The notes beneath the pieces are model-generated. The model saw only the letters and a program-made list of their open reading frames with translations, did no database searches and was not told the origin of the DNA. From an uncultured Actinomycetota bacterium (GTDB taxonomy: Bacteria > Actinomycetota > Thermoleophilia > RBG-16-64-13): 64,000 nt of DNA. The translations under genes were made by a program, and so were the position numbers. The stretch spans positions 194,815 through 258,814 of the forward strand of contig CAVZSN010000010.1 of assembly GCA_963777945.1 (NCBI GenBank). Reading direction: 5' to 3'. Of this stretch, positions 7,201-46,392 are shown piece after piece (the first letter of the stretch is position 1; each line of letters opens with the position of its first letter).

Positions 7201-7217
7201 GAGAGACCCGACTCGCC

Positions 7218-9411: not shown

Positions 9412-9682
9412 GGTGTCAGAGTAGCAGAAGAGCCGTCCCTTGAGGCACCGGCGGGTGCCGACGCCGGGGCGTTCGTTGTTCCCGTCAAGAGAGCCTGTTA
9501 TCCTACCCGCGCATCGAGCGAGGCGCCGGGCTTCGGCTCATCGTCCGGACCGCCTACCATCGGAGGCGTAGCCAGGACGTACGTTCCCCGCCTCCTCGCC
9601 GTCGAGGGACCAACCGAGCCACGTCTGGTATCTCCGGTAGAACTGGAACAGGCAGGTATCCATCGAAGCCTCAGCGACATCA

Positions 9683-10628: not shown

Positions 10629-10668
10629 GACTATGCTGGACCAAGACCACAACAAAGGAAGGACTCCG

Positions 10669-13862: not shown

Positions 13863-13879
13863 GACGGCGCCGGAGTGAC

Positions 13880-14770
13880 TCACACCTCGACCGTGAGGTT
13901 GTCGATCAGCCTCGTATCGCCGAACCACGCAGCGACCGCGATCAAGCACGCACCGTCGAGTACCTCCACGGGGGCCAGATTCGTAGCGTCGACGATCGCC
14001 ACGTAGTCGATGGTGGCCCGACTCGCGCCGGTCAGGACGGCACGTATCTCGCTCTCCAGCCGAGAGACGTCCCGCTCCCCGTTCTCCACCAGGGTGAGCG
14101 CGGCCGAGAGGGCGCGGAAGATCGCAGGAGCTTCCGCCCGCTCCTCCGTGGAAAGGCGGATGTTTCGCGAGCTCAGGGCCAGCCCGTCCGCTTCGCGGAC
14201 GGTGGGGCAGGACACCACTTCCACCGGGGTGTTCAGGTCGCGGACCATGTGCTTGATCACGGCGAGTTGCTGCGCGTCCTTCTCCCCAAAGTAGGCGCGA
14301 TCGGGCCCACAGATGGCGAGGAGCTTGGCGACCACGGTGCACACGCCCCGGAAATGACCCGGTCGTGAAGCCCCGCACAGACCTTCGGTGAGGCTCTCCA
14401 CGTCCACCCAGGTGGAATACCCGGGCGGATACATCTGCGCCACCGAGGGAGCGAACACGAGATCGGCACCCGCCCCTTCTGCGAGCCGCAGGTCGCGCTG
14501 CAAGTCACGGGGATATCTATCAAGATCCTCCCCCGCCCCAAACTGCGCGGGGTTGACGAAGATGGACACCACGATCAGGTCGTTGTCCGCGCGGGCCCGG
14601 CGGATGAGGGAGAGATGGCCCTCGTGCAGAGCTCCCATGGTGGGAACGAGGCCGATTGTGCGCCCTTCCCGTCGAGCCTCCTTCAGCACGGCCCTCACGC
14701 CCGCGACGCTGTCAAAGCAGGGAATGGCTTGGCTCAACGCTGATCCCGGACTACATCGCGTGAATGCCAT
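13880..14770 (-). CDS. panC: pantoate--beta-alanine ligase
   Basis: IGLVPTMGALHEGHLSLIRRAR ... VVSIFVNPAQFG ... RPGHFRGVCTVVAKLL ... YFGEKDAQQL ... GLALSSRN. Start chosen at the internal ATG 14770. Confidence 0.9.
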   Translation of the reverse strand: MAFTRCSPGSALSQAIPCFDSVAGVRAVLKEARREGRTIGLVPTMGALHEGHLSLIRRARADNDLIVVSIFVNPAQFGAGEDLDRYPRDLQRDLRLAEGAGADLVFAPSVAQMYPPGYSTWVDVESLTEGLCGASRPGHFRGVCTVVAKLLAICGPDRAYFGEKDAQQLAVIKHMVRDLNTPVEVVSCPTVREADGLALSSRNIRLSTEERAEAPAIFRALSAALTLVENGERDVSRLESEIRAVLTGASRATIDYVAIVDATNLAPVEVLDGACLIAVAAWFGDTRLIDNLTVEV

Positions 14771-15709
14771 TCGGCCATCGACGGAGCTCCTCCCAGACTC
14801 CGGGCAGCACGCACTCCCCTGCGGATGCTGGCTTCGACGGCCACGGCCGCTGCGACCCCCACCTGGAAGACGTTGCTCGACCGGAGGCCCGTCGCGAGCG
14901 CGAAGACGCAGTCCCCATCGCGCGGTGTGTGGACCGGGTCGACGGCCCGGGCCATGCCGTCGTGAGCCATCCGGGCCACCAGCGAACACTGCAGTTTGTC
15001 GAGCACGGCATCCGTCATCACTACCGAGAGCGTCGTGCTCTCGATGGCGCTGAAGACCGGCGCCGAGGTCATCGCGAGCAGCGAAGCCGTGCTGCCTGCG
15101 AACCCCTCACCGCTGCGGGCCCCGGCCATTATCTGCCCTCGTTCATCGAGGATGTCTCCCAGCGCGTTCACCACGCTGAGCGCAGAGACGGTCACCCCTC
15201 CACCGACTTCCACGGAAGCCAGACCCACCCCGCCCTTCATGAGCTCCCGAGAAGTTCAGCAGTTTGCCCACCGTCGCGCCGGTGCCGGCTCCCACGGAGC
15301 CCTCTTCCACGGAGACACCGGCCGTCGCGGCGGCACGAAGAGCATCCTCCGCCAGCGGACAGGCCTGAGCGCTACCCAATCCCAGGTCGTAGATCACCGC
15401 GGCTGCGACCAGGGGGATCCTGGCGTACGGGGTCTGATATCCCGCCCCACCCTCCTTGAGGAAGGTGGTCACCCCCGCGGCCGCCGTCAGGCCGGGCGCG
15501 CTGCCTCCGGTGAGCAGGACGGCGTGCAATTCGCTCACCGAGGCGTAGGGCGAAAGCAGAGCCGTCTCGAGTGTCCCCGGAGCTCCTCCGCGGATGTCGA
15601 CCGAAGCGACGACGCCTTGGGGCGCAAGGATCACGGTGCAGCCGGTGAGACCCTCGTAGTCGGAGTAGTGCCCGACGGAGATGCCTTCAAGCGGAAGCTC
15701 GGCCGTCAT
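14734..15709 (-). pseudogene. P1/S58 family peptidase (DmpA / L-aminopeptidase-D-esterase-like), one frameshift near 15240
   Basis: ISVGHYSDYEGLTGCTVILAP ... VDIRGGAPGT ... LLTGGSAPGL ... GSVGAGTGATVGK, then MKGGVGLAS ... NALGDI ... TTLSVVMTDA ... MAHDGMARAV. Confidence 0.75.
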
Positions 15710-15774
15710 TCGCCTTTCCTGCTCCCCATCGCCCCTCGCTGCGTCCCGCCAGCCCAGGTCGTTCCGGGAGGCTA

Positions 15775-17071
15775 CTAGCGGGAGTTCTTCCTCATCTGGT
15801 CGAGGAACTCCGTGTTGGACTTGGTCTCCTTGAGCTTCTGGATGAGCAACTCTATGGCGGCGTTGGGGTCGAGCGCATGCAGCACCGAGCGCAGCTTCCA
15901 GACCATCTTGGCCTCGGCGCCGTCCATGAGTAGTTCTTCCTTACGCGTCCCGGAGTTCTCGATGTCGATGGCCGGGAAGATGCGCTTGTTGGCCAGCTGC
16001 CGGGTGAGCCGCACCTCCCAGTTGCCGGTGCCCTTGAATTCCTCGAAGATGACCTCGTCCATGCGCGACCCCGTCTCGACGAGGGCCGTGGCCAGTATCG
16101 TCAGCGACCCGCCCTCCTCGATGTTCCGGGCAGCGCCGAAAAACTTCTTCGGCGGGTACAACGCGGTCGAATCGACCCCGCCGGAGAGGATGCGGCCGCT
16201 TGCCGGAGCCTGCAGGTTGTAAGCCCGGGCCATGCGCGTGATGGAATCGAGCAGCACCACGACGTCCTTGCCTACTTCCACCAGCCGCTTCACCCGTTCG
16301 AGCACCAATTCGGTGACCTGCACGTGGTTCTCGCCCGGCTGGTCGAAGGTGGAACTCACCACCTCGCCTGTGACCGTGCGCTCCATGTCGGTGACCTCTT
16401 CCGGCCGCTCGTCCACGAGCAGCACCATCAGATGCACCTCAGGATTGTTGGTGGCGATGGCATGCGCGAGGTCCTTGAGGATGGTGGTCTTTCCCGCCTT
16501 GGGCGGCGATACGATCAGACCGCGCTGGCCTTTGCCGAGAGGGCTCATGATGTCCATGACCCGCGCCGAGAGCCGGTCGGGAGTGGTCTCCAGACCGTAG
16601 CCGCTCATCCGGGAATAGAGGGGTCAGCGAGTCGAAGGTGGGGCGATGCCGCGCCTGCTCTGGGTCCATGCCGTTGACCGTCTGGATCTTGAGCAGGGCG
16701 TGATACTTCTCGTTATCGCGCGGAGTCCTCACCTGACCGGTGATCTCGTCGCCACGACGCAGTTTGAACCGTCTGATCTGGGATAAAGACACATAAATGT
16801 CGGAATCGGACTGGGTATAGCCCTGCGTGCGCAGGAAGCCGTAGCCGTCGGGAAGGATATCCAGCAGGCCGGTACGGAAGTGCAGACCTCGGTCCTGAGA
16901 CTGTTCGTTGAGGATCTTCATGATGAGATCCTGCTTGGAATACTTGCGGAAGTTCTTGATACCGAGCTCCCCGGAGATCAAGTGCAGGTCGGAGAGGAGC
17001 TTCGGTTCGATCTCGGCGAGCGAGGTCGTCTTCGTCGTGGCTCGGACCGGCTGTTCGTCGTTCTCGTTCAT
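15775..17071 (-). pseudogene. rho: transcription termination factor Rho, one apparent 1-nt insertion near 16594
   Basis: LSDLHLISGELGIKNFRKYSKQDLI ... GYGFLR ... IYVSLSQIRRFKLRRGDEITG ... PLFPDERL / [39 protein letters not shown] ... [10 protein letters not shown] ... RIFPAIDI. Confidence 0.9.
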
Positions 17072-27202: not shown

Positions 27203-27278
27203 TGGAGCGGAGTACGGGGGTCGAACCCGCGACATCCAGCTTGGGAAGCTGGCACTCTACCAACTGAGTTAACTCCGC
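27203..27278 (-). tRNA. tRNA-Gly (anticodon CCC), CCA encoded
   Basis: Minus strand GCGGAGTTAACTCAGTTGGTAGAGTGCCAGCTTCCCAAGCTGGATGTCGCGGGTTCGACCCCCGTACTCCGCTCCA folds as a 7/4/5/5-bp cloverleaf. Anticodon loop TTCCCAA, T-loop TTCGACC. Confidence 0.93.
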
Positions 27279-28559: not shown

Positions 28560-30339
28560 CTACATGCTCTCCGGCGTACTCACGCCCAGCAGATGGAGGC
28601 AGCGGGCGATGACCGTCTTCGTGACAAGGCAGAGCGCCAGTCTCGACGACGCCTCAGCGGGGGGAACGCCGATCACCCGACAATGCTTGTAGAAGACATG
28701 GAAGTCCCCTGCCAGATCTTGGGCGAAGGCTGCGATGCGGTGTGGAGCCCGCCTCTCGGCCGAATCCTGGACCACCCAGGCGAAGCTTTCCAGCCGCTTG
28801 ATCAGGTCGCGCTCGTAGGGCGAGGCGAACACGGCAGGGTCGGCGGGTACACCGGCCTCGGAGCCGACGGACAGGTTGCGCAGGATGCTCGCGATGCGGG
28901 CGTGGGCGTACTGGACGTAGTACACGGGGTTTTCCTGCGACTGCTGCGCGCGCAAGCCCAATATCGAGGTCGAGGGTCTGGTCGTGCGAGCGCATGACCA
29001 GGAAGAACCGAGCGGCATCGACCCCGATGGCCTCGATGAGTTCCGCTAGGGTCACCATCTCCCCCCGCCGGGTCGACATCTGCCGCAACTCGCCCTGCTC
29101 CAGCAGGTTCACCAGCTGTCCGATGATGACCTCCAACACCCCAGGACGGCCCGCGAGGATCTCCACTGCGGCGTTCATGCGGGGTACGTAGCCGTGGTGG
29201 TCGGCGCCCCAGATGTTGATGAGGTGCTCGAACCCGCGCTCGAGCTTGTTCTCGTGGTACGCGATGTCGGCGGCGAAATAGGTGGGCCTGCCGTTGCCCC
29301 GGATGAGGACGCGGTCCTTGTCGTCACCGCGAGATGTGGTCCTCAGCCAGACGGCCCCACCATCCCGATAGGCTTCTCCTCGCTCGAGCAGCGCGGAGAT
29401 GATCCTGTCCAGGTCGCCCCCCGTGTGCAGCGTGGTCTCGCTGAACCAGCAGTCGAACTCCACTCCGAACGTGGCCAGTTCCTGTCGCATCTCCTCCAGC
29501 ATCAGGGCACACCCACGCTGGCGGAAGAACAACACCGCTTCATCGACGGCAGGGTCGGGCGGCCACTCGGACTGGGCTTCGCTCTCCTCCTCGTCGTCCA
29601 TATCGACAACCGCTCCGTCCGCCGCGCCCGGCTCGAGCCGGGCGCCGCCCGCGGCGAGGCCGGCGGCGGCGATGGACAGCGCCGGCGCGAACCGGTCCCC
29701 ACACTCGCCCCCGATGGTGGCGGCGATGTCTTTGACATATTCACCCTGGTAGCCATCGCTCGGCACCGGAAGATCCAGGCCCAGCGACTGAGCATAGCGA
29801 GCGGCGACGCTCCGCCCGAACCGATCCATCTGCCGGCCGTGGTCATTGATATAGAACTCGGTGGAGACGCGGGAGCCGCTGAAGCTCAGGAGACGATACA
29901 GGGCATCTCCGTAGGCCGCGTACCTGCCGTGGCCCACGTGGAGCGGCCCGTTGGGATTGACGCTCACGAACTCCAGGTTCACCCTGGGGTGAGCCTTCTC
30001 TTCGCCGCGCCCTATGCCCTCCCCTTCGGCGAGCATCCCCCGCATTACCTGGGCATAGGCGGTCCCGGCCAGGGCGAAGTTCAGGAAGCCCGGGCCGGCG
30101 ATCTCGATGCGGTCCACCAGGAGCGAGATCTCAGGGTCGGCCAGCAGACGCATGCGCAGTTCTTCGGCGAGAAGTCCTGGACCCCGCTTGGCCGTCTTGG
30201 CGAGCTGCATGCAGAGCGGAGTGGCGTAGTCGCCGTGCGCGGGGTCGGCGGGGCGCTCGAGACGGACGTCCGGCAGTTCCTGCCAGCCGTGCTCCGCAGC
30301 CCACTGCGTCACTACCCTCTGCACCAGTTCGGTTATCAA
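28560..30339 (-). pseudogene. argS: arginine--tRNA ligase, one frameshift near 28990 (TTG start behind GAGAGGA)
   Basis: EFVSVNPNGPLHVGHGRYAAYGDAL ... INDHGRQM ... TYFAADIAYHENK ... NIWGADHHGYV ... MSTRRGEMV, then NPVYYVQYAHARIASILRN ... in a second frame. Confidence 0.9.
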
Positions 30340-30356
30340 GGCGGCTCTTGTCCTCT

Positions 30357-31379
30357 CTATGAAGCGGTCGGGGCAGGAGTGACCATCAGCTCCTCCAATC
30401 TCGTGATCTGCACCGGCGTCCCGATGGCCACCACCCTGTCGCCGGTGCTGAGAACGGAGTCCGGGGCAGGGTTGGTGTCGAAGACTCCGGTGGCCGCACG
30501 GCGGACGGCCAGGATGGTCGCACCGGTCCGGGTGCGCACCTCGAGTTCCCCGATGGAACGTCCGATGGCGCAGCATTCGCCCGCCAGTTCCAGTTCTTCC
30601 ACCCGGAATTCCAGCTCGCCGCCACCGGTCACCACTTCCAGGTAGTCGCTCACCAGCGGCTTGAGCATCAGTGTGGCCATCCTTTTGCCCCCGATGTCAT
30701 ACGGGGTCACCACATGGTCAGCGCCGGCGCGCTCGAGCTTGCTGACGATGTCGTCCGAGCCGGCCCGAGACACGATGAGGACTTTTGGGTTGAGCACCCG
30801 CGCCGAGAGCGTGAGAAAGATGTTGCCGGCGTCCGACCCCAGTGCCGCGACCAGGCCCTTCGCCCTGTCTATCCCGGCCACGTGAAGCACCTCGTCGGCA
30901 GTGGCGTCACCCCTCACGGCCAGTAGACCCTCGGTCTCGGCCAGCTCCACCCGCTGGGGATCGTTGTCGATGACGACGAACGGAGCCTTGTGCGCCGAAA
31001 AATGTTGGGCTACGGACCCACCTACCCGGCCGTAGCCGCAGATGATGACATGCCCGTGCAGTCTATTCACCTGTCGCCTCACCGCCCTTCTGCGAAACAC
31101 CCCTGTGAGCTGCCCGCCGATCACAAACTCCACCATCCGCCCGATACCGTAGAGGATGGTGCCGACACCACCGATGATCAGCAGCACCGTGAATACCTGC
31201 CCTGCCCGCGAAAGCGGGTGCACCTCGCCGAAGCCCACCGTGAAGATGGTGGTCACGGTCATGTAGAGGGAGTCTAGCAGCCCCCAGCCCTCGATCAGCA
31301 TGTAGCCGATGGTGCCCACGACCACGATCGCCACGATCGCCGCGATAACGATCAGACCTGCTTTTAGTTCCTCACGCAT
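30357..31379 (-). CDS. MthK-like potassium channel (2-TM pore plus RCK/TrkA-N and TrkA-C)
   Basis: Selectivity filter TVTTIFTVGFGE, Rossmann motif HVIICGYGRVGGSVA, C-terminal TrkA-C-like ELEFRVEELELAGE ... GDRVVAIG. Confidence 0.85.
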   Translation of the reverse strand: MREELKAGLIVIAAIVAIVVVGTIGYMLIEGWGLLDSLYMTVTTIFTVGFGEVHPLSRAGQVFTVLLIIGGVGTILYGIGRMVEFVIGGQLTGVFRRRAVRRQVNRLHGHVIICGYGRVGGSVAQHFSAHKAPFVVIDNDPQRVELAETEGLLAVRGDATADEVLHVAGIDRAKGLVAALGSDAGNIFLTLSARVLNPKVLIVSRAGSDDIVSKLERAGADHVVTPYDIGGKRMATLMLKPLVSDYLEVVTGGGELEFRVEELELAGECCAIGRSIGELEVRTRTGATILAVRRAATGVFDTNPAPDSVLSTGDRVVAIGTPVQITRLEELMVTPAPTAS

Positions 31380-32571: not shown

Positions 32572-32806
32572 TCCACTCCAATCCTTGCTCGTCTGTTCGA
32601 ATCGTCCACGATCTCGTACAAGTTATCGGCAGATAGTCAGCCGGGACCATAGCCCTTTTGGCAGTCGCGAGCGCCTGCTCACGGAATTCCGAGCCCCCCT
32701 TGACATGTACCGTCGCCAGCACCCAAAATACCGTGGGGCGTTTCCGCACCCGCGGAAACGTAAATGACAGGTGACCAGAACGGCCACCGTTCCTTCTAGG
32801 AGGGGG

Positions 32807-33097
32807 ATGCGAATGCTCCATGAGCCCGCACAGACCGCACACGGCGTCGACGAGGCGGCCGCGTACAAGAGGCGCCTCGGGTTGAAGATGCTGGCCGCCT
32901 ATAGTGTGCTGTACGTCATCTTCATCATCATCAACGTCGGCTGGCCCAAGACCATGGGCACCATCGTGGTCGGCGGCCTGAACCTCGCCATCGTCTACGG
33001 CTTCGCGCTGATAATCATCGCCTTCCTGCTGGCCATCGTCTACAACTGGCTCTGCACGAGGCACGAGAAGTCGTTCGAGACCGAGGGGACGGTCTGA
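32807..33097 (+). CDS. yjcH: DUF485 (YjcH-like) small membrane protein, usual partner of ActP
   Basis: Two TM helices (LAAYSVLYVIFIIINVGW, NLAIVYGFALIIIAFLLAIVYNW). Stop lies 1 nt before the actP ATG. Start could be 32771, 32807 or 32813. Confidence 0.75.
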   Translation: MRMLHEPAQTAHGVDEAAAYKRRLGLKMLAAYSVLYVIFIIINVGWPKTMGTIVVGGLNLAIVYGFALIIIAFLLAIVYNWLCTRHEKSFETEGTV

Positions 33098-33098
33098 G

Positions 33099-35072
33099 AT
33101 GGCAGAAGTCGAGACCCTCGCCATCGTCATCTTCGTGGTCATCGTCGGCCTGGTCCTGTTCGTATCGTTCTTTACCGCCCGCCGGGCGCGCTCGGCCAGC
33201 GGGTACTACGCGGCCGGGGGCCGCATACATTGGGGCGTCAACGGCATAGCCTTCGCCGGCGACTACCTCTCGGCGGCATCGTTCCTCGGTATCTGCGGAA
33301 TGATCGCCACCGCAGGCTACGATGGGTTCCTCTACTCGATCGGTTACCTGGCGGGCTGGGTGGTCGCGCTCTTCGTGGTAGCCGAGCCGATGCGCCGCCT
33401 GGGACGCTATACGTTCACCGACGCGCTGGACGCCAAGTTCAACAAGCGCAGCCTCAAGCTCATGGCGGCGATCGCCACCCTCATCGTGTCCATCTTCTAC
33501 CTGATCCCCCAGATGGTGGGAGCCGGGGTGCTCATCGAGCCCCTGCTGGGTTTCCCCTACTGGGTCGGCGTGGTCCTGGTCGGCGCGATCGTGATCACCA
33601 TCGTCGCCACCGCCGGGATGACCTCCACCACCTACGTGCAGTTCATCAAGGGCTCCTTGCTGATCGTCTTCTCGCTCGTGATCGTGATGGCCCTGCTGGC
33701 CCGCGGCCTCTCGACCGAACCGGACCAGGGTGGCAAGGTCCCCTTCTACGAATACAAGACCATCACCGCCACCCAGACCGGGGACGCCATCACCCCGGAC
33801 GACCCGACCTACACGGCCGTGGGGCAGGAGACGGTCAAGGAGCACCGTCTTTGTCAAACTCGAGCATGAGGGCGACGTCCACCTGGTGGAAGGCCGAAGT
33901 CGGCGACGCCGGCGCGACGCTGCACGAGACCCAAGAGGTCGTGATCCAGGAGGACGGCAGCAAGTGGATCAACGGCGCCCCTGAATCGGAGGACAACAAG
34001 CTGCGGCAGGTCGGTAACCTGAGCGAGATCGAGGGTGATCCGGAGGCGAAGACCGGAGGGATAAACCCCTTCTCGTTCCTCGCCAAGATCGGCGACCCGG
34101 ACACCACGGTGAACCTCTGGAAGAAGTCCACCTTCACGGACGGCGCCTCGTCGGTGACCGTGTACTACCAGGCACCGACTCCGGGCGACACCGTCACTCG
34201 GCCCGGCCAGATTGTTCAAGCTCGAGGGCTCGTGCGATCGACCGGATCGACTTCGTCTCGCTCATGATCGCCCTGTTCCTGGGAACGGCGGCCCTGCCGC
34301 ACATCCTCATCCGCTACTACACGGTCCCCAGCCAGAGGGCAGCACGTAAGTCGACCGTTGTGGCCATCGCCGCGATCGGTTTCTTCTACATCCTCACGTT
34401 GTTCATGGGCTTGGGCGCCATGTCGAGCAGCGTGATCAACCTGCTCGACAACAACATGTCGGCCCCGCTGCTGGCCCGTTCCTTCGGGACGTTCCTGTTT
34501 GCCATGATCTCAGCCATCGCCTTCGCGACGGTGCTGGGCACGGTCAGCGGTCTCATCATCGCCGCCTCGGGAGCCGTGGCTCACGACCTGATGGACCGCT
34601 TCGGCGGCCTCATCAAGTCTGAGCGCCAGAAGGTCGTCGCCGGACGCGTCGCCGCCTTCGTGGTGGGCGCCATAGCCATCCTTCTGGGCTTGCCTTCCAG
34701 GGCATCAACGTCTCGTTCCTTGTGGGTCTTGCCTTCGCAGTGGCGGCCTCGGCCAACCTCCCGTGCATCATCATGATGCTGTTCTGGAAGCGCACCACCT
34801 CCAAGGGCATGGTCGCCTCGATCATCGTGGGCATCGTTGCCTCTGTAGGCATCATCCTTTTCTCGCCCACTGCTTGGGAACTTTACGGGCTCGATCCCGC
34901 CAACGCCCCTATCCCGCTCAAGAACCCGGGCATCATCTCCATCCCGTTGAGCTTCATCGCCATATACCTGGTCTCCAAGCTCACGAAGCCGGACATGATG
35001 GACGAACATCGTTCCACTTCGCAGAAGACCATCCCTCAGGAGCCGGTGACCGGCGAGGCCGTCACCGAATAG
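33099..35072 (+). pseudogene. actP: cation/acetate symporter ActP (SSS family), about 4 frameshifts between 33.8 and 34.8 kb
   Basis: SGYYAAGGRIHWGVNGIAFAGDYLSAASFLGICGMIA, FTDALDAKF, LGTAALPHILIRYYTV, SGLIIAASGAVAHDL, NVSFLVGLAFAVAASANLPCIIMMLFWKRTT. Confidence 0.85.
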
Positions 35073-35097
35073 GGCTCGGCTCTTCGCCGCGAACGAA

Positions 35098-35142
35098 AAC
35101 GCCGCCGGATGCGATCCCGCATCCGGCGGCGTTCTGTTTCTC
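35098..35142. terminator. bidirectional intrinsic terminator between actP and the satP-type gene
   Basis: Perfect 16-bp stem AACGCCGCCGGATGCG-ATCC-CGCATCCGGCGGCGTT, flanked by GAAAA upstream and CTGTTTCTC downstream. Confidence 0.6.
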
Positions 35143-35179
35143 GTGAGAGAGGAGCGTGGCGCCCCGACGGGTCTTCCGT

Positions 35180-36235
35180 CTAGAAGACGTCCTTCGGCTT
35201 CAGCGGGTAACCGGTGTAGCCGGCGCTGGCGTAGTACACCGCACGGTCGAAGAAGCGGCCCAGTTCGCGGTTGAGGTCGACGGCCCGCTGCAGATCCATG
35301 GCGGACTCCCACACCCCGTGCGTGCGAGCCGACATCCACACCTCCCGCTTGAGGAGCAGGATGGCGCTGATGAGCTCGGGCAAGGGCAGACCCTGAGCGG
35401 CGCGAGTCGCTCCCAGTCTGTGGAAGAAGGAGCCGATATCCGCTTCGGAGGGCTTGCCGGTGAAGTACTCCTCCACCTGCGTGAGGGCGAACTCGCTCGC
35501 GGTGACGAGCTCTTCGTCGCTGACCACGCCGTAGGACGGCGTCTGGGGACTGATGCGCAACGCCTGCAACCACATGTCCGCGATCTCTTCGCCGTAGTCT
35601 TGGACGAAGCCCTTGGGCAGCTGGCTCACAGGACCCAGCGGAAGCAGCACCCTTCGGTAGGTCTCGTTGAGGATCTGGGCCATAGCCGCATAGACGGCTG
35701 CCAGACCGGTAAGGATGCCCTCGTAGCCGGCGATCTTGCCCCACACGGCGCCGCCGCCGAAGTCCCGGATGGCCAGCAGGAAGAACAGGATGGTCAGGAG
35801 TCCGAACACCACCTGCAGAGCGCGGTTGAGCTTCAGCGTCCCCACGAACATGTAGGCGGTGAAAATACCCCAGAACACGAAGTACCAGGCCATAGCGGTC
35901 TCGCTGGTCTTGGCCGCGGCGCCAGCACCCTCGAACATGGTCGGGAAGAGCCAGATGCCGGCCAACGTGAGCCAGAAGAGCCCGTACGACGTGAAGGCCA
36001 AGGTGCCGAAGGTGTTGTTCTTCCTCCACTCCATGATGCCGGCGATGATCTGGGCGATGCCGCCGTAGAAGATGCCCATGGCGAGGATCATGGAGTTGAG
36101 TTCGTAGAAGCCGGCGTTATGGATATTGAGAAGGACGGTGGTTAGACCGAACCCCATGAGCCCCAGCGGGGCGGGGTTGGCGTTGGTGTCGAGCAGTTTG
36201 GTGACTGTCTCGTTTGAAGCTAATGACTTTGCCAT
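35180..36235 (-). CDS. satP: SatP/YaaH (GPR1/FUN34) acetate channel continuous with a ~150-aa helical RsbRD_N-like domain (fusion, or two GTGA-coupled genes merged by an indel)
   Basis: ANPAPLGLMGFGLTTVLLNIHNAG ... ILAMGIFYGGIAQIIAGIMEW ... FTSYGLFWL ... NETYRRVLLPLG, then with no stop VSQLPKGFVQDYGEEIADMWLQAL ... LGATRAAQGLPLPELISAILLLKREVW. Confidence 0.8.
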   Translation of the reverse strand: MAKSLASNETVTKLLDTNANPAPLGLMGFGLTTVLLNIHNAGFYELNSMILAMGIFYGGIAQIIAGIMEWRKNNTFGTLAFTSYGLFWLTLAGIWLFPTMFEGAGAAAKTSETAMAWYFVFWGIFTAYMFVGTLKLNRALQVVFGLLTILFFLLAIRDFGGGAVWGKIAGYEGILTGLAAVYAAMAQILNETYRRVLLPLGPVSQLPKGFVQDYGEEIADMWLQALRISPQTPSYGVVSDEELVTASEFALTQVEEYFTGKPSEADIGSFFHRLGATRAAQGLPLPELISAILLLKREVWMSARTHGVWESAMDLQRAVDLNRELGRFFDRAVYYASAGYTGYPLKPKDVF

Positions 36236-36454
36236 GTACCTATCTCCACTCCTTTGCTCACGCGGATCCGCAATGCTCGCGCCGGCCGCTTCCGCCCACC
36301 CCCCCGTCTGGGTGCGCGTCCGAGCAGCGGGACAATATACTTTCAGGATGCCGGCTTGTCCACCTGGCGGCCCGATTCTTGTAAAATGTCGGGGATTCTG
36401 GCGAGCTACGCCGAAGGTCTGGGGAAACATGAGGGAAGGGGAATCTCTTTTCAC

Positions 36455-37228
36455 ATGGCAGATACGATCCGCATCGATTTGCACTGCCATTCGTCGGCCA
36501 GCGACGGCGACCATTCCCCTGCCAATGTCGCCAGACGTCTCGCCGATATCGGGGTCGCTTGGGCCTCTCTGACCGATCACAACACGGTAGGCGGGCAGGA
36601 CGAGTTTCGGACCGCCCTTGAGCGCCATGGTATCGGTTATGTCCCGGGCGTAGAGATCGACGCGCGCTCGGCCTTCGGCCCTCTGCATCTGCTGGCATAC
36701 CAGATCGATCTCCAGGACGAGCACCTCCTGGCGATACTGCACACGGTGCGTCGGCCCTGGCGGTCATCGCTGCGCCGTTTCCTCTCCCAGATACGGTTGG
36801 TCCGGGAGCCCCCTCCGCTCTCGCCCACCCCATGTGCGGTCGATGGCGACGCCGGTGCGCTCAAGGCACCGTTCACCACGGCGGACGCCATCTGCGTGAT
36901 CCATCAGGCCGGCGGCCTGGCCTTCCTTGCCCACCCGCTCGAGAGCCTGAGGAGTTTCAAGAGGATCGAGGAGGCGCTCGACCAGCTGCAGCCCGAAGGT
37001 CTGGACGGCATCGAAGTCTTCCACAAGTCCTACCCCGAAGGCGTGCAGTTCGCGCTCCTCGCCCTGGCCGTCCGGCGCGGACTCGTACCCACGGGAGGAA
37101 GCGACTTCCACGGGCTGCATCACTCCGACGGAGCCAGCTTGGGGGTGGACGTACCCCGTGGCGAATGGAACAAGATGCTCAAACACATCGGCGCAACACC
37201 GCGGTCCCTACCGTCTGCGGCATCATAG
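36455..37228 (+). CDS. PHP-domain phosphoesterase (TrpH/YciV-like)
   Basis: IRIDLHCHSSASDGDHSP ... ASLTDHNTVGG ... VPGVEID ... HLLAY ... LAFLAHPL ... GIEVFH ... TGGSDFHG. Intact, 30 nt upstream of the next gene. Confidence 0.8.
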   Translation: MADTIRIDLHCHSSASDGDHSPANVARRLADIGVAWASLTDHNTVGGQDEFRTALERHGIGYVPGVEIDARSAFGPLHLLAYQIDLQDEHLLAILHTVRRPWRSSLRRFLSQIRLVREPPPLSPTPCAVDGDAGALKAPFTTADAICVIHQAGGLAFLAHPLESLRSFKRIEEALDQLQPEGLDGIEVFHKSYPEGVQFALLALAVRRGLVPTGGSDFHGLHHSDGASLGVDVPRGEWNKMLKHIGATPRSLPSAAS

Positions 37229-37258
37229 GACTCACGACAAGCGAACTGAGGAGGGGGT

Positions 37259-40201
37259 TTGGACACCACTGAAAGATCTAGGAGTGACGCCTCGAGGGCC
37301 AGGCGCAGCTTCATCCTGAGGGTCGTGCTGCCTGCTGTCTTCGCGGTCATCCTGTTCATCCTCGCCACCTTCTTGCTCCTAATCCCAGCCGTCGAGAATC
37401 AGATGCTCGAGGGGAAGAAGGAGACCACGCAGGAGCTCACCCGGTCGGCCATCAGCATCATCGACGAGTACTACCAGGAAGAGTCGGCCGGCACGATGAC
37501 CCGCGAGCAGGCCCAAGCCGAGGCCGCGGTCCGCATCGAGCAACTCAGGTGGGGTGACGAAGGTAAGGACTACTTCTGGATCACCGACATGAACCCCACC
37601 ATGGTCATGCACCCCTACCTCCCGGAGCTCAACGGCCAAGACCTGACGACCTACCAGGATGAGGCCGGCAACTACCTGTTCGTCGACATGGTCGATGTGG
37701 TTCAGGAGAGCGGATCCGGATACGTCGAGTACTACTGGCAGTACAAGGATGATCCTTCCCGCATCGTCCAGAAGCTGTCGTACGTGGAGGAGTTCGCCCC
37801 CTGGCAGTGGGTGGTCGGCACAGGCATCTACCTGGACGATGTCGATGCTGCCATCGCGGCGGTCCGGCGCAACCTCATCTACGTCTCCCTGGCCATTGCC
37901 ATCGTAGTTGCCTTGCTCCTGCTCTACAGCGGGCGCCAGAGCCTGAAGATCGAGAAACGCAGAGCGGCGGCCGAGAAAGGCCTGCAAGAGTCACACGAGA
38001 AGTACCGGGCCCTCGTGGAGGCTGCCACTCAGGGTCTTATCATGGTCTCCGGGGGCAGGACGACGTACTCCAACAAACCTCTCGCGGATATGTTGGGCTA
38101 CTCGGAGACCGCGCTGGCCGACATGGAGGTAAGCCGGTTGTTCATGGCCGAGGGCACCAACGAGCGGGCCTTCGAATCGCTCCGCTCGGGCGCTGCCGAG
38201 GACATGCCCGGTGATTTCGACGCTCGTCTGCGAACCAAAGACGGCTCCGCCATCGATGCTCTCGTCGCCGCCACACCCATCAACCTGGCAGGTAAGGAAG
38301 GTTTCATCCTGCTCATCAAGAGTCTGGCCAGCAAGCAGACTCTGGACGCGGCTCTGGACGAGACACGGCGCCAGTTCAAGAGCATGTCCGATGCCCTCAC
38401 TCTCGGGGTTTTCCGCAGCACGTGGGGACGCAAGGCCGCGCTCATCGAGGTGAACCCGGCCATGCGATCCATCCTGGGCCTCCCCGTCGCAACTGACATG
38501 GTGGGCTCCGACTGGCTGGAATTGATCCTCGACCGCACCCAGCGCGACGCGCTGGTGACCACTCTCGCGCGCGACAAGGCGGTGCAGAATTATCACCTCG
38601 GTATGCGCCGGGAGGATGGAGGACGGGTAGACGTCTCCCTGTTCGCCGTCTTGGTCGAAGGCGAGAGCGGCCAGCCTGTCTATGTCGATGGTCTGATCGA
38701 GGACATCTCCAAGCAAACGAAGCATGAGGAGGAGCGGGAAGCCCTCATATCCCGCTTGCAGACCTCGCTCTTCTTCCTGCGCGAGCCCATCAGTCAGGCT
38801 GTCAGCGACGCCCTTTCCGTCGACACGAACGAGACGATCGCCCGCACGGCCACCCTCATGAAGAAGCACCGGACGACCGCGGCCTTCGTCACCGGTCCCG
38901 ACAGCGTCCTCATGGGCATTGTGACCGACCATGACTTCCGCGAGCGCGTCGTCGGCGAGGGACTCGACCAGCAGAGTCCGATACGGTCCATCATGAGCGC
39001 ACCAGTAGCCTCTGTCGAGGTCAGCGCCCCCATCTACGAGGCGTTGCTGAGGATGCAGGAAAGGGATTGCGATCATCTCGCCGTCCTCGATGACTCCGGC
39101 AAGCTCGTAGGGGCCGTCCAACTCCGCGATCTGGCCCGCTCTCAGCAATCTTCGTCCGTGATAGTCACCGACTCGGTTCGCCGCGCGCGGACCGTCGGCC
39201 AGATAGTCGATGCCCACGACCGCCTGCCCGGACTCATCAAGGCCGTGGTCGACTCGGGAGCCGAGACCAGGTACGTCAACCGCATCGTCTCAGGCGTGTC
39301 CGATGCTGTGGTCCAGAGGCTTGTGGACATGGCGATCGAGAAGTTGGGTCCGCCGCCGGTGCGCTTCGCCTTCCTCACAGCGGGGAGCGAGGGTCGCGAG
39401 GAGCAGACCCTGCTGACCGACCAGGACAACGCCCTTCTCTACGACGATCCCGATCCCGAGCAGTCCAAGGAGACGGCTGACTACTTCCTCGAGTTGGGCA
39501 CGCTCGTATGCGACTGGCTGGATCAGGTCGGATATGCCTACTGCGATGGCGGCATCATGGCCAAGAACCCGCGATGGAACCTCCCGCGGGCCATCTGGCG
39601 GCAGCAGTTCTCCCACTGGATCCACAACGCCGAGGCCCAGGAGTTGCTCGAGCTCAACATGCTGTTCGACTTCCGTTGCGTGGTCGGGGAGCAGCAGTTC
39701 GCCCGCGATCTGCGCTCCTGGGTGTTCGACCAGATGGAGGAGTACCCGCTCTTCTTCCTCCACTTCGCGCAGAACGCTCTGCTCTACAAGCCACCCCTGA
39801 CCATGTTCGGAAACCTGCAGACCACGTCTTCCGGGGACGGAGCCAAGACCCTCAGCCTCAAGGAAGCGACGATGCCCATCGTCAACTTCGCCCGGCTCTA
39901 CGCCTTGCGCCATCGCATCGACTCGACCAACACCCTCGACCGGCTTGCCGAGCTCTATCAGAAGGGGGTTCTAAGCCGGGACTCATTCGAGGAGATGGTG
40001 CCCGATTACGAGACGCTCATGCGCATCCGCCTGCGCAGGCAGGCCGTCGCCGTCGAGCACGGTCTTGCACCCAACAATCTGATCACGCCCGAGGAGCTCA
40101 CCTCGGCGGAAGAAGCGAGGCTCAAGAGACTGTTCTCGCTCTCGGCCGATCTCCGCAAGAAGATCAGCTACGACTTCCTCGGAGGGATCGCCGGGTTCTA
40201 A
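37259..40201 (+). CDS. membrane sensor nucleotidyltransferase: TM-sCache-TM-PAS-PAS-CBS pair-DUF294 (GlnD-like NTase)-DUF294_C
   Basis: 980 aa, intact. Cache: DYFWITDMNPTMVMHPY ... YVEYYWQYKDD ... PWQWVVGTGIYLDDV. CBS: IMSAPVASVEVSAPIYEALLRMQERDCDHLAVLDDSGKLVGAV. NTase: FAFLTAGSEGREEQTLLTDQDNALLYDD. Tail: LNMLFDFRCVVGE ... SLKEATMPIVNFARLYAL. Confidence 0.8.
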   Translation: MDTTERSRSDASRARRSFILRVVLPAVFAVILFILATFLLLIPAVENQMLEGKKETTQELTRSAISIIDEYYQEESAGTMTREQAQAEAAVRIEQLRWGDEGKDYFWITDMNPTMVMHPYLPELNGQDLTTYQDEAGNYLFVDMVDVVQESGSGYVEYYWQYKDDPSRIVQKLSYVEEFAPWQWVVGTGIYLDDVDAAIAAVRRNLIYVSLAIAIVVALLLLYSGRQSLKIEKRRAAAEKGLQESHEKYRALVEAATQGLIMVSGGRTTYSNKPLADMLGYSETALADMEVSRLFMAEGTNERAFESLRSGAAEDMPGDFDARLRTKDGSAIDALVAATPINLAGKEGFILLIKSLASKQTLDAALDETRRQFKSMSDALTLGVFRSTWGRKAALIEVNPAMRSILGLPVATDMVGSDWLELILDRTQRDALVTTLARDKAVQNYHLGMRREDGGRVDVSLFAVLVEGESGQPVYVDGLIEDISKQTKHEEEREALISRLQTSLFFLREPISQAVSDALSVDTNETIARTATLMKKHRTTAAFVTGPDSVLMGIVTDHDFRERVVGEGLDQQSPIRSIMSAPVASVEVSAPIYEALLRMQERDCDHLAVLDDSGKLVGAVQLRDLARSQQSSSVIVTDSVRRARTVGQIVDAHDRLPGLIKAVVDSGAETRYVNRIVSGVSDAVVQRLVDMAIEKLGPPPVRFAFLTAGSEGREEQTLLTDQDNALLYDDPDPEQSKETADYFLELGTLVCDWLDQVGYAYCDGGIMAKNPRWNLPRAIWRQQFSHWIHNAEAQELLELNMLFDFRCVVGEQQFARDLRSWVFDQMEEYPLFFLHFAQNALLYKPPLTMFGNLQTTSSGDGAKTLSLKEATMPIVNFARLYALRHRIDSTNTLDRLAELYQKGVLSRDSFEEMVPDYETLMRIRLRRQAVAVEHGLAPNNLITPEELTSAEEARLKRLFSLSADLRKKISYDFLGGIAGF

Positions 40202-41175: not shown

Positions 41176-41968
41176 GGCCGTCACCCCCGCTACGGTCGCC
41201 ACCGCAGCACTGATCGACGACAATCACCTTGCCATCCACCACCACCATCTGTCCCCCGAACGCGGCATGAAGATTCGTCCTCGGTGAACACTTCCGCTGG
41301 GGGGCCTACGCGATCAGCCGGCGACTGAGGAGGACCACCTGATCGAAGCGGTCGGCGGCGAGATCGAGATCGTGGGTCGAGACCAGGACCGTCACAGACT
41401 CGCCCCGAAGCCCGGCGAGCACGTCAAGGGTCGCCTCTCGGGTCGCCACATCGACGCCCGTGAAGGGCTCATCGAGCAGGAGTACGCGAGGCTGCTGGGC
41501 ACAGCGCGCGGGCCAGGAAGACGCGCTGCTGCTGTCCTCCGGAAAGCTCCCCGATGGAGCGCTGGGCCAGGTCGCTCACTCCAAGTAGATCCATGCTCCG
41601 AGCGACGATCTCGCGGTCACCCCGTGTCAGCCGCCTGAACCATCTCCCCCGCCCGTAGCGGCCCATGGAGACGACGTCGAGCACGTTGACGGGGAAGCGC
41701 CAGTCGACTTCCTCTCGCTGGGGCACGTACGCGACCTCCCTGATACTCTGCCGAAAGGTCGCCCGTCCACCGACATCTCCCCCGCGGCGAGCGGCAACAA
41801 CCCTACCATCGCCTTGAACAGCGTCGACTTGCCTGCTCCATTGGGTCCGACCACCGCCACCTGGGCGCCGCGGTCCACACTGAGGGAGACCGATTCCAGC
41901 GCCCGGGTCTGTCCGTACAGCACCGTCACCTCGCGCAGGCTGATGAGCTGTTCCCGAGGGTCGCTCAC
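41176..41968 (-). pseudogene. metal ABC transporter ATP-binding protein, frameshifted (3' end approximate)
   Basis: VAVVGPNGAGKSTLFKAMVGLL (Walker A), ELSGGQQQRVFLARAL (signature), LLDEPFTGVD (Walker B), VLVSTHDL, in three or more frames. Confidence 0.8.
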
Positions 41969-43780: not shown

Positions 43781-45432
43781 ATGTTCTGTTATCAGTGCGA
43801 GCAGACCGCGAAGTCGGTAGCCTGTACCAGGAGAGGCGTCTGCGGCAAGACCGCCGAGGTCGCGGCCGTCCAGGACGCCCTTGTCCACGCGCTCAAAGGG
43901 CTCGCGCTTGTGGCTGAGAAAGGTGCCGACGCCGGTGTGGTACCGGACGACACTTATCCGTTCATCGAGCAGGGTCTCTTCGCGACCCTCACCAACGTCA
44001 ATTTCGATGCCGACGCGCTGACCGCTTGGGTACACGCCGCCGTCGAGCGACGCGAGGCTATCAAGTCGGCCCTCGCCACCGAGCAGCCACAGGTCACCTT
44101 CCCGAAAGGACCGGCGACGTTCACGCCGGGGCACACCACCACGGAGGTCGCTGAGCGAGGGCGCGCGCACGGCATCAACGCCGAGGCAGCCGCCGACGAG
44201 AACGTCCGGTCCCTCCAACATACCGTCCTCTACGGACTCAAAGGGGTCGCCGCGTACGCTCACCACGCTCACGTGCTCGGCTACGCCGATGAGGCCATCG
44301 ACGCCTACCACGTGGAAGCACTGGCCGACCTCGCCCGATTCGACGTCGGTGATCTGAACGACTGGTTGAGCAAGGCCATGCGCTGCGGCGAGATGAACTA
44401 CAAGACCATGGAACTGCTCGACAGGGCGAACACGGAGACGCTTCGGCACGCCCGTGCCCACCGAGGTGCCCCTGGGCGTCAAGGCAGGCAAGGCCATCCT
44501 GGTCTCGGGCCACGACCTGCTCGATCTCGACGGCTCTGCTCAAGCAGACGGAGGGGAAAGGCATCACCGTCTACACCCATGGCGAGATGCTGCCGGCGCA
44601 CGCCTATCCGAAACTCAAGGCGTACGCGCATCTCTACGGCAACTTCGGCAGCGCCTGGTAGAACCAGAAGAAGGAGTTCCCGCAGTTCCCAGGGGCCATC
44701 CTCATGACCACCAACTGCATCCAGATACCTGAAGACACCTACTTCGACAACATCTTCACCCGCGCGGTGGTCGGGCTGCCGGGCGTCGGTCCACCTCGAG
44801 GGCCGCGACTTCAGCCCGGTCATCGAGCGGGCGCTCGCGCTTCCCGGCTTCCCAGCCGACGTGCCCGCCAAGACGGTGCAGCGTAGGCTTCATGCGGAAT
44901 GCGGTGCTCGCTCACGCCGAGAGGATCATCGAACTGGTGAAGGCCGGCAAGATCCGCCACTTCTTCTTGGTGGGCGGCTGCGACGGAGCCAAGCCCGGCC
45001 GCGACTACTACACCAGGTTCGTCGAACAGGCCCCCGCCGACACGGTCATCCTCACCCTCGCCTGCGGCAAGTACCGCTTCTACGACCAGGACCTGGGCGC
45101 CATCGACGGCCTGCCGCGGCTGCTGGACATGGGCCAGTGCAACGACGCCTACTCGGCCATCCAGGTGGCCCTGGCCCTGGCCGACGCGTTCCAGGTGGGC
45201 GTCAACGACCTACCGCTGTCGCTGATGCTGTCCTGGTACGAGCAGAAGGCGGTGGCCATCCTGCTGACCCTGCTCTATCTGGGTATCAAGGACGTCCGGC
45301 TCGGCCCCACACTGCCGGCCTTCCTGACTCCGGACGTGCGCCAGTACCTCGTCGATACCTACGACCTGCAAGCCCATCACCACGCCCGAGGAGGACCTGG
45401 CGGCGATCTCCTGGGCAGCCGGTTGCTCTGAT
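43781..45432 (+). pseudogene. hcp: hybrid-cluster protein / hydroxylamine reductase, many frameshifts plus an in-frame TAG at 44659
   Basis: MFCYQCEQTAKSVACTRRGVCGK ..., [90 protein letters not shown]. Confidence 0.85.
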
Positions 45433-45518: not shown

Positions 45519-46392
45519 CTACATCACGATCTTGTTGAGCGGATACTCGACGATGCCCTGAGCCCCGGCCTTCTTGAGCCGCGGGATGATCACCCGCACG
45601 GTGGACTCGTCGACGATGGTGTTGACGGCCAGCCACTCGTCGTCGCTGAGAGTGGAGATGGTGGGCTTGCGCAGCGCGGGCAGCACGCTCCAGCACGGTC
45701 GGCAGGTCGTCTCGGCGCACATTGAGCATGAGCCCCACCTTGCCCAGCGCGGCGATGGCGCCCTCGAAGCAGCATGGTCATGTCCTCGAGCTTGCGCCGC
45801 TTCTCCGGGTCGCTTCCAGGAGTCGAGGTTGGCGATGAGCTGGGTGTTCGACTCGAGCACGGTCTCGACGATGCGCAGCTTGTTCGCACGCAGCGAGCTG
45901 CCCGTCTCGGTGACCTCGACGATGGCGTCGGCCAGTTCCGGGGGCTTGACCTCGGTGGCTCCCCAGCTGAACTCCACTTTGGCCTTGACGCCCTTCTCGG
46001 CCAGGTAGCGCTTGGTGGTGGCCACCAGTTCGGTGGCGATGATCTTGCCCTCCAGGTCGCGCGACCGTACGGACCGGCGACGCCTCGGGCACGGCCAGCA
46101 CCCAGCGCACCTTGCCGAAGCTCTGCTTGGCGTAGACCAGGTCGCACACCGTCTGCACGTCGGCCTCGTTCTCCCGGACCCAGTCGAGACCGGTGATGCC
46201 GGCGTCCAGGATGCCGTTCTCCACGTAGCGCGCCATCTCCTGGGCGCGGATCAGCAGGCACTCCAGTTCGGGGTCGTCGACCACCGGGAAGTACGAGCGG
46301 CTGCTGGTGGTCAGGTTGAAGCCCGCCCGCCGGAACAGGTCGATGGTGGCGCTCTCTAGGCTGCCCTTGGGTATTCCAAGCTTGAGGATCAT
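45519..46392 (-). pseudogene. hisG: ATP phosphoribosyltransferase, long form (with HisG_C), frameshifted
   Basis: [25 protein letters not shown] ... [26 protein letters not shown] ..., [18 protein letters not shown] ... [18 protein letters not shown] ..., [26 protein letters not shown]. Confidence 0.85.

Follow-up and report, generated by a model that had tools for sequence, protein, structure and literature searches.

A DUF294 nucleotidyltransferase with a carboxylate-sensor-like Cache domain and a phosphoesterase partner points to a reversible switch on organic-acid uptake

The locus described here lies in a 64,000-nt stretch of DNA from an uncultured Actinomycetota bacterium (contig CAVZSN010000010.1), hereafter the window, and centers on two adjacent genes, one for a PHP-type phosphoesterase and one for a 980-aa transmembrane protein that ends in a DUF294-type nucleotidyltransferase (NTase). 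All coordinates are window positions; open reading frames (ORFs) were taken from a six-frame list, and domains were assigned by Pfam and NCBIfam scans (Table 1). Divergent from the PHP gene is a gene for a SatP-type acetate channel, and convergent to the latter are genes for a small DUF485 membrane protein and a symporter resembling ActP and MctC. A preliminary description had outlined this layout from the letters of the DNA. The ORF list and the sequence bear out its uninterrupted NTase ORF with a TTG start and the PHP gene ending 30 nt ahead of it, and its divergent SatP gene is supported by a score of 265.8 bits to the NCBIfam AceTr_1 equivalog (cut-off, 50).

Table 1. Features of the locus and further annotated elements of the window (L001 and L008 are related loci described in the text)
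Feature	Position	Strand	Basis or remark
tRNA	27206-27278	-	Rfam
ArgS gene, frameshifted	28560-30576		comparison with intact L001 ortholog
Sigma-70-like promoter match 5' of DUF485/ActP-like operon	32700-32729	+	TTGACA-18-CAAAAT, 10/12, consensus match alone
DUF485 (YjcH-like) small membrane protein	32807-33097	+	Pfam PF04341, 3.1e-11
ActP/MctC-like SSF monocarboxylate symporter, ~660 aa, in four frames	33099-35072	+	Pfam SSF on fragments; tblastn with L008 and L001
Insert between TM6 and TM7 of the symporter	33840-34230		comparison with E. coli ActP
Hairpin between convergent ActP-like and SatP genes, 16-bp stem	35098-35133	.	16 pairs, 12 G-C, loop of 4
SatP/AceTr acetate channel (residues 18-197) with ~150-aa helical C-terminal domain	35180-36235	-	NCBIfam AceTr_1
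C-terminal domain of SatP	35183-35650	-	weak RsbRD_N match
Sigma-70-like promoter match 5' of SatP	36334-36362	-	TGGACA-17-TATATT, 10/12, consensus match alone
PHP metal-dependent phosphoesterase, TrpH/YciV-like, 257 aa	36455-37228	+	Pfam PHP
Shine-Dalgarno GGAGGGGG ahead of the NTase TTG start	37250-37257	+	direct sequence reading
Transmembrane sensor nucleotidyltransferase (NTase), 980 aa	37259-40201	+	Pfam
TM1 of NTase	37310-37384	+	
sCache_2 of NTase	37409-37870	+	Pfam, residues 51-204, 7.9e-43
TM2 of NTase	about 37874-37936	+	
First PAS of NTase	37997-38317	+	Pfam, residues 247-353
Second PAS of NTase	38444-38695	+	Pfam PAS_3, residues 396-479
CBS pair of NTase	about 38801-39142	+	Pfam, residues ~515-628
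DUF294 of NTase	39221-39634	+	Pfam, residues 655-792, 5.5e-46
GSxGR...DxD catalytic motif of NTase	39383-39427	+	
DUF294_C of NTase	39749-40177	+	Pfam, residues 831-973, 5e-38
ZnuC gene, frameshifted	41186-41950		comparison with intact L001 ortholog
Hcp gene, frameshifted	43781-45431		comparison with intact L001 ortholog
HisG gene, frameshifted	45519-46392		comparison with intact L001 ortholog

Pfam matched every family anticipated for the two proteins (DUF294, DUF294_C, CBS, PAS, sCache and PHP) and ordered those of the NTase protein, from N to C terminus, as had been proposed: a first transmembrane (TM) helix, sCache_2, a second TM helix, two PAS domains, a CBS pair, DUF294 (PF03445; 156.3 bits, cut-off 21) and DUF294_C (PF10335; 130.6 bits, cut-off 22.5). 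No cNMP_binding match was found by Pfam, and the TM-sCache_2-TM-PAS-PAS N terminus stands in the place of such domains, which was also the earlier view. The catalytic residues G709-S710-x-G712-R713 and D721-x-D723, previously read as intact, are invariant in 30 homologs; judged from sequence, the NTase looks catalytically active.

The nature of the input can be predicted in some detail. The sCache_2 model scores 146.5 bits (cut-off, 25), and the domain matches PscD-SD (5g4y; 2e-36) and the acetate-bound Adeh_3718 (4k08; 6e-33). PscD contacts propionate through Y90, W92, H103, F126, Y143, W145 and K156, and its ligands are glycolate, acetate, propionate and pyruvate (PMC5062169). At all seven positions the window Cache domain carries the identical residue (Y105, W107, H118, F141, Y158, W160 and K172), invariant in the family. 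The pocket is thus predicted to be that of C2/C3-carboxylate sensors, in keeping with the role first suggested for the domain, and its identity with that of PscD defines C2/C3 carboxylates as the predicted input. From the sCache_2 sensors PscD, McpP/PP_2861, Adeh_3718 and MctS, whose output is a methyl-accepting chemotaxis protein signaling domain or a histidine kinase, the window protein differs in having an NTase as its output. In NCBIfam, the best matches of the N terminus are MctS and CtpM.

Sequence comparison said little about the output end, since a PDB search with the NTase region returned chance matches alone (E > 0.5). An AlphaFold2 (AF2) model of residues 640-980 (pLDDT 93.5, pTM 0.90) was more informative. 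Its significant fold matches are the Legionella AMPylation domain DrrA (6yx5_B; 1.4e-7, TM score 0.63) and the two halves of GlnE (1v4a, 1.4e-6; 3k7d, 1e-5). Aminoglycoside NTases matched at E > 0.03, and no significant PDB match to the model was found for polymerases, terminal uridylyltransferases (TUTases), cGAS-like enzymes or other NTases, the best TUTase reaching E = 0.59 with a TM score of 0.22. NCBIfam and Pfam scans detected no GlnD or GlnE model, no HD or ACT domain and no GlnE-like duplication of the NT domain in the protein, so the relation is one of fold only. By structural assignment, the modeled NTase would belong with the protein-AMPylating branch of NTases, and a protein acceptor is favored because of this assignment to DrrA and GlnE. 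In GlnD and GlnE, the counterpart of the helical DUF294_C domain is the one that binds the acceptor (PMC3710099).

The second enzyme of the locus scores 33.9 bits to Pfam PHP (cut-off, 26.4). Its nearest PDB relatives are 3e0f (BAD_1165; 2.9e-26), 2yb1 (the pAp phosphatase Cv1693) and 7ug9 (RNase AM), to all of which its nine metal ligands align. These residues (H10, H12, D17, H42, E67, H78, H160, D217 and H219) make up a complete trinuclear set, invariant in 46 orthologous domains, and the enzyme looks active on this account. It shares fold and ligands with the TrpH/YciV-type PHPs 7ug9, 2yb1 and 3e0f but differs from them in falling far under the NCBIfam equivalog cut-offs (NF041577, 109.1 against 400 bits; NF047791, RNase RNM, 92 against 375) and in its central insertion, which comprises 30 residues between two aligned blocks as against 68 in 3e0f. 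About 100 standalone PHP orthologs are at least 43% identical to it, many of them on contigs that also carry a homolog of the 980-aa NTase protein, and scores then fall to those of generic TrpH proteins (≤125 bits). The NTase-linked PHPs make up a subfamily of their own that serves DUF294 partners only.

Relatives of the NTase protein indicate how close this partnership is. A protein search retrieved 119 further homologs of the same architecture with 41 to 91% identity. Among the best 120 homologs, 42 are 1,180 to 1,274 aa long, and every one of these bears at its N terminus a PHP ortholog that aligns over its full length with the window PHP (33 to 53% identity). In addition, genomes were scanned at one per GTDB species; over 600 matches resulted, of which the top 80 were kept as loci. 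The neighborhood survey covers 55 nonredundant Cache-type loci and 27 shorter relatives. Seed families were located in the neighborhoods by tblastn; flanking ORFs were also clustered without prior assumptions, and recurrent clusters were named by Pfam. In 15 of the 19 PHP-bearing loci, PHP and NTase are fused as single ORFs without stops; the four split loci, namely the window, L007, L008 and L009, all belong to one clade. PHP-NTase fusion is therefore the commoner state, and most relatives make one polypeptide. An assembly error or read-through as the origin of the split in the window was considered and rejected: the 30-nt gap holds two in-frame stops (TAG at 37226 and TGA at 37247), followed by the Shine-Dalgarno GGAGGGGG and the TTG at 37259, and dozens of independent 980-aa homologs and the standalone PHPs likewise argue that the split is real.

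The family is widely distributed. A close relative, L007, stems from an Actinomycetota metagenome-assembled genome (MAG) and has a 91% identical NTase; further relatives belong to MAGs of Thermoleophilia and Gaiellales. In the Thermoleophilia MAG locus L001, whose NTase is 66% identical, PHP and NTase are one 1,222-aa protein in the same gene order as in the window (Fpg-ArgS-TrkA-RlmH, DUF485-SSF, SatP with its C-terminal domain, Znu-Hcp-HisG). By contrast, the 43% identical fusion of L003 lies 4 nt 3' of DUF485-SSF in an otherwise unrelated context. Cache-type loci span at least ten phyla, with MAGs labeled Actinomycetota, Chloroflexota, Armatimonadetes, Sumerlaeota, Lentisphaerae, Kiritimatiellia, Planctomycetota, Spirochaetes, Calditrichaeota, Bacteroidetes/Ignavibacteria, Acidobacteria (Aminicenantes, Solibacter), delta-proteobacterial lineages and one cyanobacterium. 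The shorter form that lacks Cache occurs in Verrucomicrobiota, SAR324 and most Desulfobacterales loci.

In 49 of the 55 Cache-type loci, the NTase either is fused to a phosphoesterase or has one encoded within 500 bp of its gene, and this partner is not always the same. Metallophos proteins of type a are the most frequent (18 loci; upstream on the same strand), followed by PHP (17 loci), Metallophos type b (7 loci; immediately downstream), AP_endonuc_2 (3 loci; convergent), Metallophos type c (3 loci) and a GAF-HD_5 protein with an HD-GYP-type HD_5 domain (1 locus, L020). The remaining six loci have no adjacent phosphoesterase, and two of them have truncated flanks. Farther out in the loci of about 20 kb, a single partner-seed match was found; this internal control is biased, since the seeds were the partner genes themselves. 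A neighbor-joining tree of the NTase C terminus revealed that partner type tracks clades, with nested switches: L006 with AP_endonuc_2 and L070, a Cache-less Gaiellales protein with a DEDD exonuclease, both lie within the PHP clade, and type c Metallophos lies within the type a clade. PHP had been thought to replace the DEDD exonuclease found beside other DUF294 genes. It is indeed adjacent, and no DEDD seed match occurs at the window locus, but a simple swap does not describe the pattern, PHP being one of several choices. The general rule read from these sequences is that the NTase can pair with members of at least five phosphoesterase superfamilies, which are interchangeable in this place. 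Fusion, together with repeated in situ replacement by unrelated phosphodiester-cleaving folds, implies that the NTase needs such an activity alongside.

Individual loci add some detail to this picture. The L070 NTase (Gaiellales MAG; genes at 6527-8683 and 8793-11090) is 72% identical to that of the window and has lost Cache; its partner is a convergent 766-aa sensor-fused RNase_T exonuclease whose exonuclease domain is 64% identical to that of L055, from a delta-proteobacterial MAG. The arrangement has the look of a recent change of partners, perhaps through horizontal transfer. For the AP_endonuc_2 partners (L006, 13318-14130; L012, 3736-4524; L013, 7701-8489), the best NCBIfam match, below cut-off, is CbiR, a cobamide-remodeling phosphodiesterase, and a phosphodiesterase is thus likelier than a sugar isomerase. 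In L017 (about 6300-9800) and L023 (about 13000-16500), a second sCache_2 protein with the same motif is encoded downstream of the NTase and type b Metallophos genes and is followed by a response-regulator-type gene; this pair may be a paralogous carboxylate-sensing two-component system.

The other recurrent neighbor is a transporter. DUF485 and an ActP-like symporter are encoded within 5 kb in 29 of the 55 Cache-type loci, often in one operon, and DUF4212 with an SSF transporter in 9 more. The operon order DUF485-symporter-[PHP-NTase] recurs in unrelated contexts in L003, L014, L016, L021, L022, L025, L026, L042, L046 and L056. Recurrence of both phosphoesterase and symporter, on which the preliminary description had staked its proposal of a real module, was judged to be far above chance. 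SatP, which it had counted as an added part of that module, is adjacent to the NTase in the window, but its linkage is limited to four related loci of the window's own lineage (L001 and L007-L009). No CrbS/R-type regulator was found among the recurrent neighbors of related loci.

This arrangement has a counterpart in Proteobacteria, where DUF294 NTases and nucleases beside acetate genes are already known, though uncharacterised. The 27 shorter relatives carry cNMP-binding domains where Cache and PAS stand in the window protein; a PAS-fused RNase_T exonuclease lies within 5 kb in 12 of them, and Acs is encoded nearby in 12. In line with the preliminary description, Pseudomonas has cNMP-CBS2-DUF294 proteins (PA3233, PP_0354 and Pflu5625) and RNase_T-like exonuclease partners (PA3232 and PP_0353), and the genes for the former adjoin or are coregulated with yjcH-actP and acs under MxtR/ErdR (CrbS/R) (PMC9927547, PMC5715377, PMC9765439, bioRxiv 10.64898/2026.09.07.749794). 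PA3232-PA3235 form one cluster with actP (PMC9765439), and PP_0354 and PP_0353 are an operon and direct MxtR/ErdR targets. DUF294 NTases occur widely, and in Pseudomonas and Vibrio their genes are among those most dependent on this regulatory system, and the Pseudomonas regulon also includes McpP, an sCache_2 chemoreceptor for C2/C3 carboxylates. Protein regulation by nucleotidylation was predicted for Pflu5625 in 2017 (PMC5715377), and a preprint of September 2026 still called DUF294 function unknown (bioRxiv 10.64898/2026.09.07.749794).

The Pseudomonas pair and the window system, both biochemically uncharacterised, share the CBS-DUF294-DUF294_C core, with the CBS pair directly before DUF294, as well as a dedicated adjacent phosphoesterase gene and the link to yjcH-actP/acs and C2/C3 acids. 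They differ in input, which is cytoplasmic through cNMP-binding domains in Pseudomonas and transmembrane through sCache_2 and two PAS domains in the window; in partner, a DEDD exonuclease in the former and a PHP enzyme, usually fused, in the latter; and in distribution, the former being proteobacterial and the latter spread over Actinomycetota, Chloroflexota, Armatimonadota and further phyla. In the literature searched, we found no description of a transmembrane input through Cache and PAS domains, of the fusion to PHP or of the partner-interchange rule.

What the locus family suggests is a reversible switch, so far undescribed, that acts on the uptake of organic acids. Our preferred reading, to which we assign a probability of roughly one-half, is that of a carboxylate-gated, GlnD-like antagonistic NTase/phosphoesterase pair controlling monocarboxylate uptake or assimilation, most likely through protein nucleotidylylation. 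The domain architecture, the intact catalytic residues of both enzymes, the ligand pocket, the fusion and displacement of the partner and the linkage to transporters are observed in the sequences; we infer that nucleoside triphosphates are used, what kind of acceptor is modified, that the partner is the eraser, in which direction regulation works and how it is tied to uptake. The PHP gene and the 980-aa gene would encode two halves of one signaling enzyme. A C2/C3 carboxylate (acetate, glycolate, propionate or pyruvate) would bind the periplasmic sCache_2 domain, and the signal would travel through the membrane and then the two PAS domains to be integrated with a cytoplasmic ligand, probably an adenylate, at the CBS pair. 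The combined inputs would set the activity of the GlnD/GlnE/DrrA-like NTase (DUF294 plus DUF294_C), which would join a nucleoside monophosphate (NMP) to its target by a phosphodiester bond, most likely at a hydroxyl side chain of a protein, and the PHP phosphoesterase would hydrolyze the NMP-target bond. Candidate targets would be the ActP-like/DUF485 symporter of the same locus, the tail of SatP or an Acs encoded elsewhere. Such a device would be analogous to the uridylyltransferase (UTase) and HD domains of GlnD, with another eraser fold and an extracellular input. More tentatively, and with some doubt, we suggest that PHP-sCache_2-PAS-CBS-DUF294 proteins might be transmembrane bifunctional writer/erasers that couple extracellular carboxylate and adenylate state to reversible nucleotidylylation of the SSF symporter complex or of an acetate-assimilation protein, in at least ten phyla and with interchangeable eraser folds.

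Mutant phenotypes in Pseudomonas bear on the antagonistic pair from two sides. Growth on pyruvate is impaired by deletion of PP_0353, yjcH or actP-I and not by deletion of PP_0354, which matches the prediction of an inhibitory mark on uptake that the NTase writes and the nuclease erases. Several other observations weigh against our preferred reading. On propionate, growth is worse in both the PP_0353 and the PP_0354 mutant but not in the actP and yjcH mutants, which is not what a simple pair of antagonists with ActP as its one target would predict, so ActP cannot be the sole target. The TM scores of the NTase model to DrrA and GlnE, about 0.6, are moderate. Four loci with full flanks (L019, L031, L063 and L064) have no adjacent phosphoesterase, about a quarter of loci (e.g., L002 and L011) have no nearby SSF transporter, and no conserved small PII-type target protein recurs among the flanking-ORF clusters of the neighborhoods. 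The best-known substrates of PHP, DEDD, Metallophos, EndoIV-like and HD enzymes are nucleic acids or small nucleotides, and we know of no protein de-NMPylation by these partner families except that by the HD domain of GlnD. Finally, the literature searched held no DUF294 protein with a demonstrated biochemical activity.

The fusion and displacement pattern would suit equally well a make-and-break pair in which the NTase, on carboxylate and adenylate inputs, makes a soluble nucleotide signal (a linear or cyclic oligonucleotide, or a conjugate) that the partner degrades. Partners do include well-known families of messenger and nanoRNA phosphodiesterases (HD_5 in L020, Metallophos, RNase_T/Orn-like DEDD and TrpH/YciV-type PHP, the last with the pAp phosphatase 2yb1 and RNase AM, 7ug9, among its relatives), and a conserved protein target was not seen nearby. 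Nevertheless, the significant fold matches of the NTase are protein adenylyltransferases only, with cGAS/CD-NTase, OAS-type and polymerase-type enzymes absent among them; DUF294_C matches the acceptor-binding domain of GlnD and GlnE; and no gene for a messenger receptor or effector recurs in the neighborhoods. We consider a soluble signal unlikely. The absence of significant matches to poly(A) polymerase, CCA-adding enzyme or TUTase structures weighs against another proposal, namely that the NTase adds untemplated tails to RNA 3' ends (of a tRNA, a small RNA or the acs/actP transcript) that the partner trims, making transcript stability or function responsive to acetate. Its attraction is that every partner superfamily provides 3'-end processing or exonuclease activity to polymerases, as do PHP in PolX and Pol III alpha, DEDD in epsilon, Metallophos in Mre11/PolD-DP1, and Endo IV. 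The PHP enzyme is, moreover, related to the 5'-3' exoribonuclease RNase AM, and the Pseudomonas partner, of the RNase_T family, has been speculated to degrade mRNA (PMC9927547). Pfam and NCBIfam, however, detected no RNA-binding domain in the 980-aa protein, no Rfam RNA lies in the locus, the PHP insertion is shorter than that of 3e0f, and the RNase RNM score is far under its cut-off, all of which makes RNA tailing improbable in our view.

A further account would be that adjacency at the locus has no function, PHP being a housekeeping TrpH or pAp phosphatase and the transporters mere neighbors through actinobacterial synteny. Restriction of SatP adjacency to the L001 and L007-L009 lineage, and synteny of the Fpg-ArgS-TrkA-RlmH ... 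Znu-Hcp-HisG context with L001, are what this would predict. It is very hard to reconcile with covalent PHP-NTase fusion in many phyla, in single ORFs that lack stops and are not gene-calling artifacts, with recurrence of the DUF485-symporter-[PHP-NTase] operon in ten loci of unrelated context, with another phosphoesterase filling the same slot where PHP is missing, and with the grouping of NTase-linked PHPs apart from generic TrpH; we regard it as highly improbable. A role of the partner as a pyrophosphatase pulling the NTase reaction forward was also considered and rejected on the DEDD and AP_endonuc_2 partners, enzymes for which we know of no pyrophosphate hydrolysis.

Protein nucleotidylylation by the NTase, as we prefer to read the locus, invites comparison with established writers. 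GlnD and GlnE share with it the NTase fold and the helical acceptor-binding domain (~13% identity to GlnE), and GlnD likewise unites in a single chain a writer NTase, a metal-dependent phosphohydrolase and domains that sense ligands. Unlike GlnD, the window system has no HD or ACT domain, uses a PHP fold as putative eraser, takes an extracellular input and has no PII-like gene nearby. GlnD ultimately gates the transporter AmtB through GlnK. The AMPylation domain of DrrA/SidM, the best structural match, is GlnE-like and AMPylates a protein tyrosine. Unlike the window protein, DrrA lacks sensor domains and works as a secreted effector on Rab GTPases of the host, and the eraser that opposes it, SidD, is separately encoded and of unrelated fold.

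The symporter gene needs some care in interpretation. The preliminary description had read the span as DUF485-ActP; location, DUF485 and SSF membership stood, but three frameshifts (about 33840-33875, 34225 and 34690), revealed by tblastn with the intact L008 and L001 orthologs, had been overlooked, along with the C-terminal domain of SatP and the PHP-NTase fusion in most relatives. The ArgS, ZnuC, Hcp and HisG genes are likewise frameshifted relative to intact L001 orthologs, which with the ActP-like gene makes at least 11 apparent frameshifts in about 19 kb, whereas Fpg, TrkA, RlmH, DUF485, SatP, PHP, NTase, ZnuB and ZnuA are intact by the same comparison. In L007, the ActP-like gene is also broken, at sites other than those in the window. 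Because other window genes are frameshifted and the L007 breaks lie elsewhere, the lesions are best taken as assembly errors, and the possibility that the ActP-like gene is a pseudogene was rejected. The window assembly looks like an unpolished long-read MAG, which makes any single-gene pseudogene call in it unsafe.

The best NCBIfam matches of the symporter are MctC and ActP, with every equivalog cut-off missed: the intact L001 protein scores 434 of 670 bits for MctC, 409 of 750 for the ActP subfamily NF006903 and 330 of 1,099 for TIGR02711. By these models it falls outside the ActP family of cation/acetate symporters proper, being an SSF protein whose gene follows that for DUF485. Relative to E. 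coli ActP, about 150 aa are inserted between TM6 and TM7, a feature kept in seven distant loci (L001, symporter at 6682-8664; L003, 8074-9996; L006, 14224-16146; also L008, L017, L028 and L031). The positive-inside rule predicts an extracytoplasmic location for the insert, out of reach for a cytoplasmic NTase; it was accordingly rejected as an NTase target on its predicted topology. The NTase-linked ActP/MctC-like symporters also lack the N-terminal extension of E. coli ActP.

SatP carries some 150 extra C-terminal residues that fall outside the AceTr family and match RsbRD_N weakly (22.6 bits, cut-off 24.3). The 351-aa fusion is kept in L001 and L007-L009, and for the extra domain no more than 17 close relatives are present in the database, each from the window's lineage. 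Its AF2 model consists of five helices at a pLDDT of 61, too weak for a fold search. It could act as a tail that regulates the channel.

At the DNA level, promoter-like matches precede the DUF485/ActP-like operon and SatP, the latter within the 219-bp divergent SatP/PHP intergenic region, and the perfect 16-bp-stem hairpin between the convergent genes is probably a bidirectional terminator. In the 64-kb window, the tRNA of Table 1 was the sole Rfam match, and no Acs gene was found.

To conclude, the analysis makes the problem of DUF294 NTases experimentally tractable, since it offers a cheap and specific predicted input ligand (C2/C3 carboxylates for a PscD-type pocket), evidence from fusion and displacement for a phosphodiester-cleaving partner and a fold assignment to the AMPylating branch. 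If the proposed switch is true, it would add a new posttranslational layer to the control of short-chain fatty acid uptake among gut-associated bacteria and those of soil and sediment, and provide a second example of GlnD logic built from different parts, analogous to GlnD-PII-AmtB.

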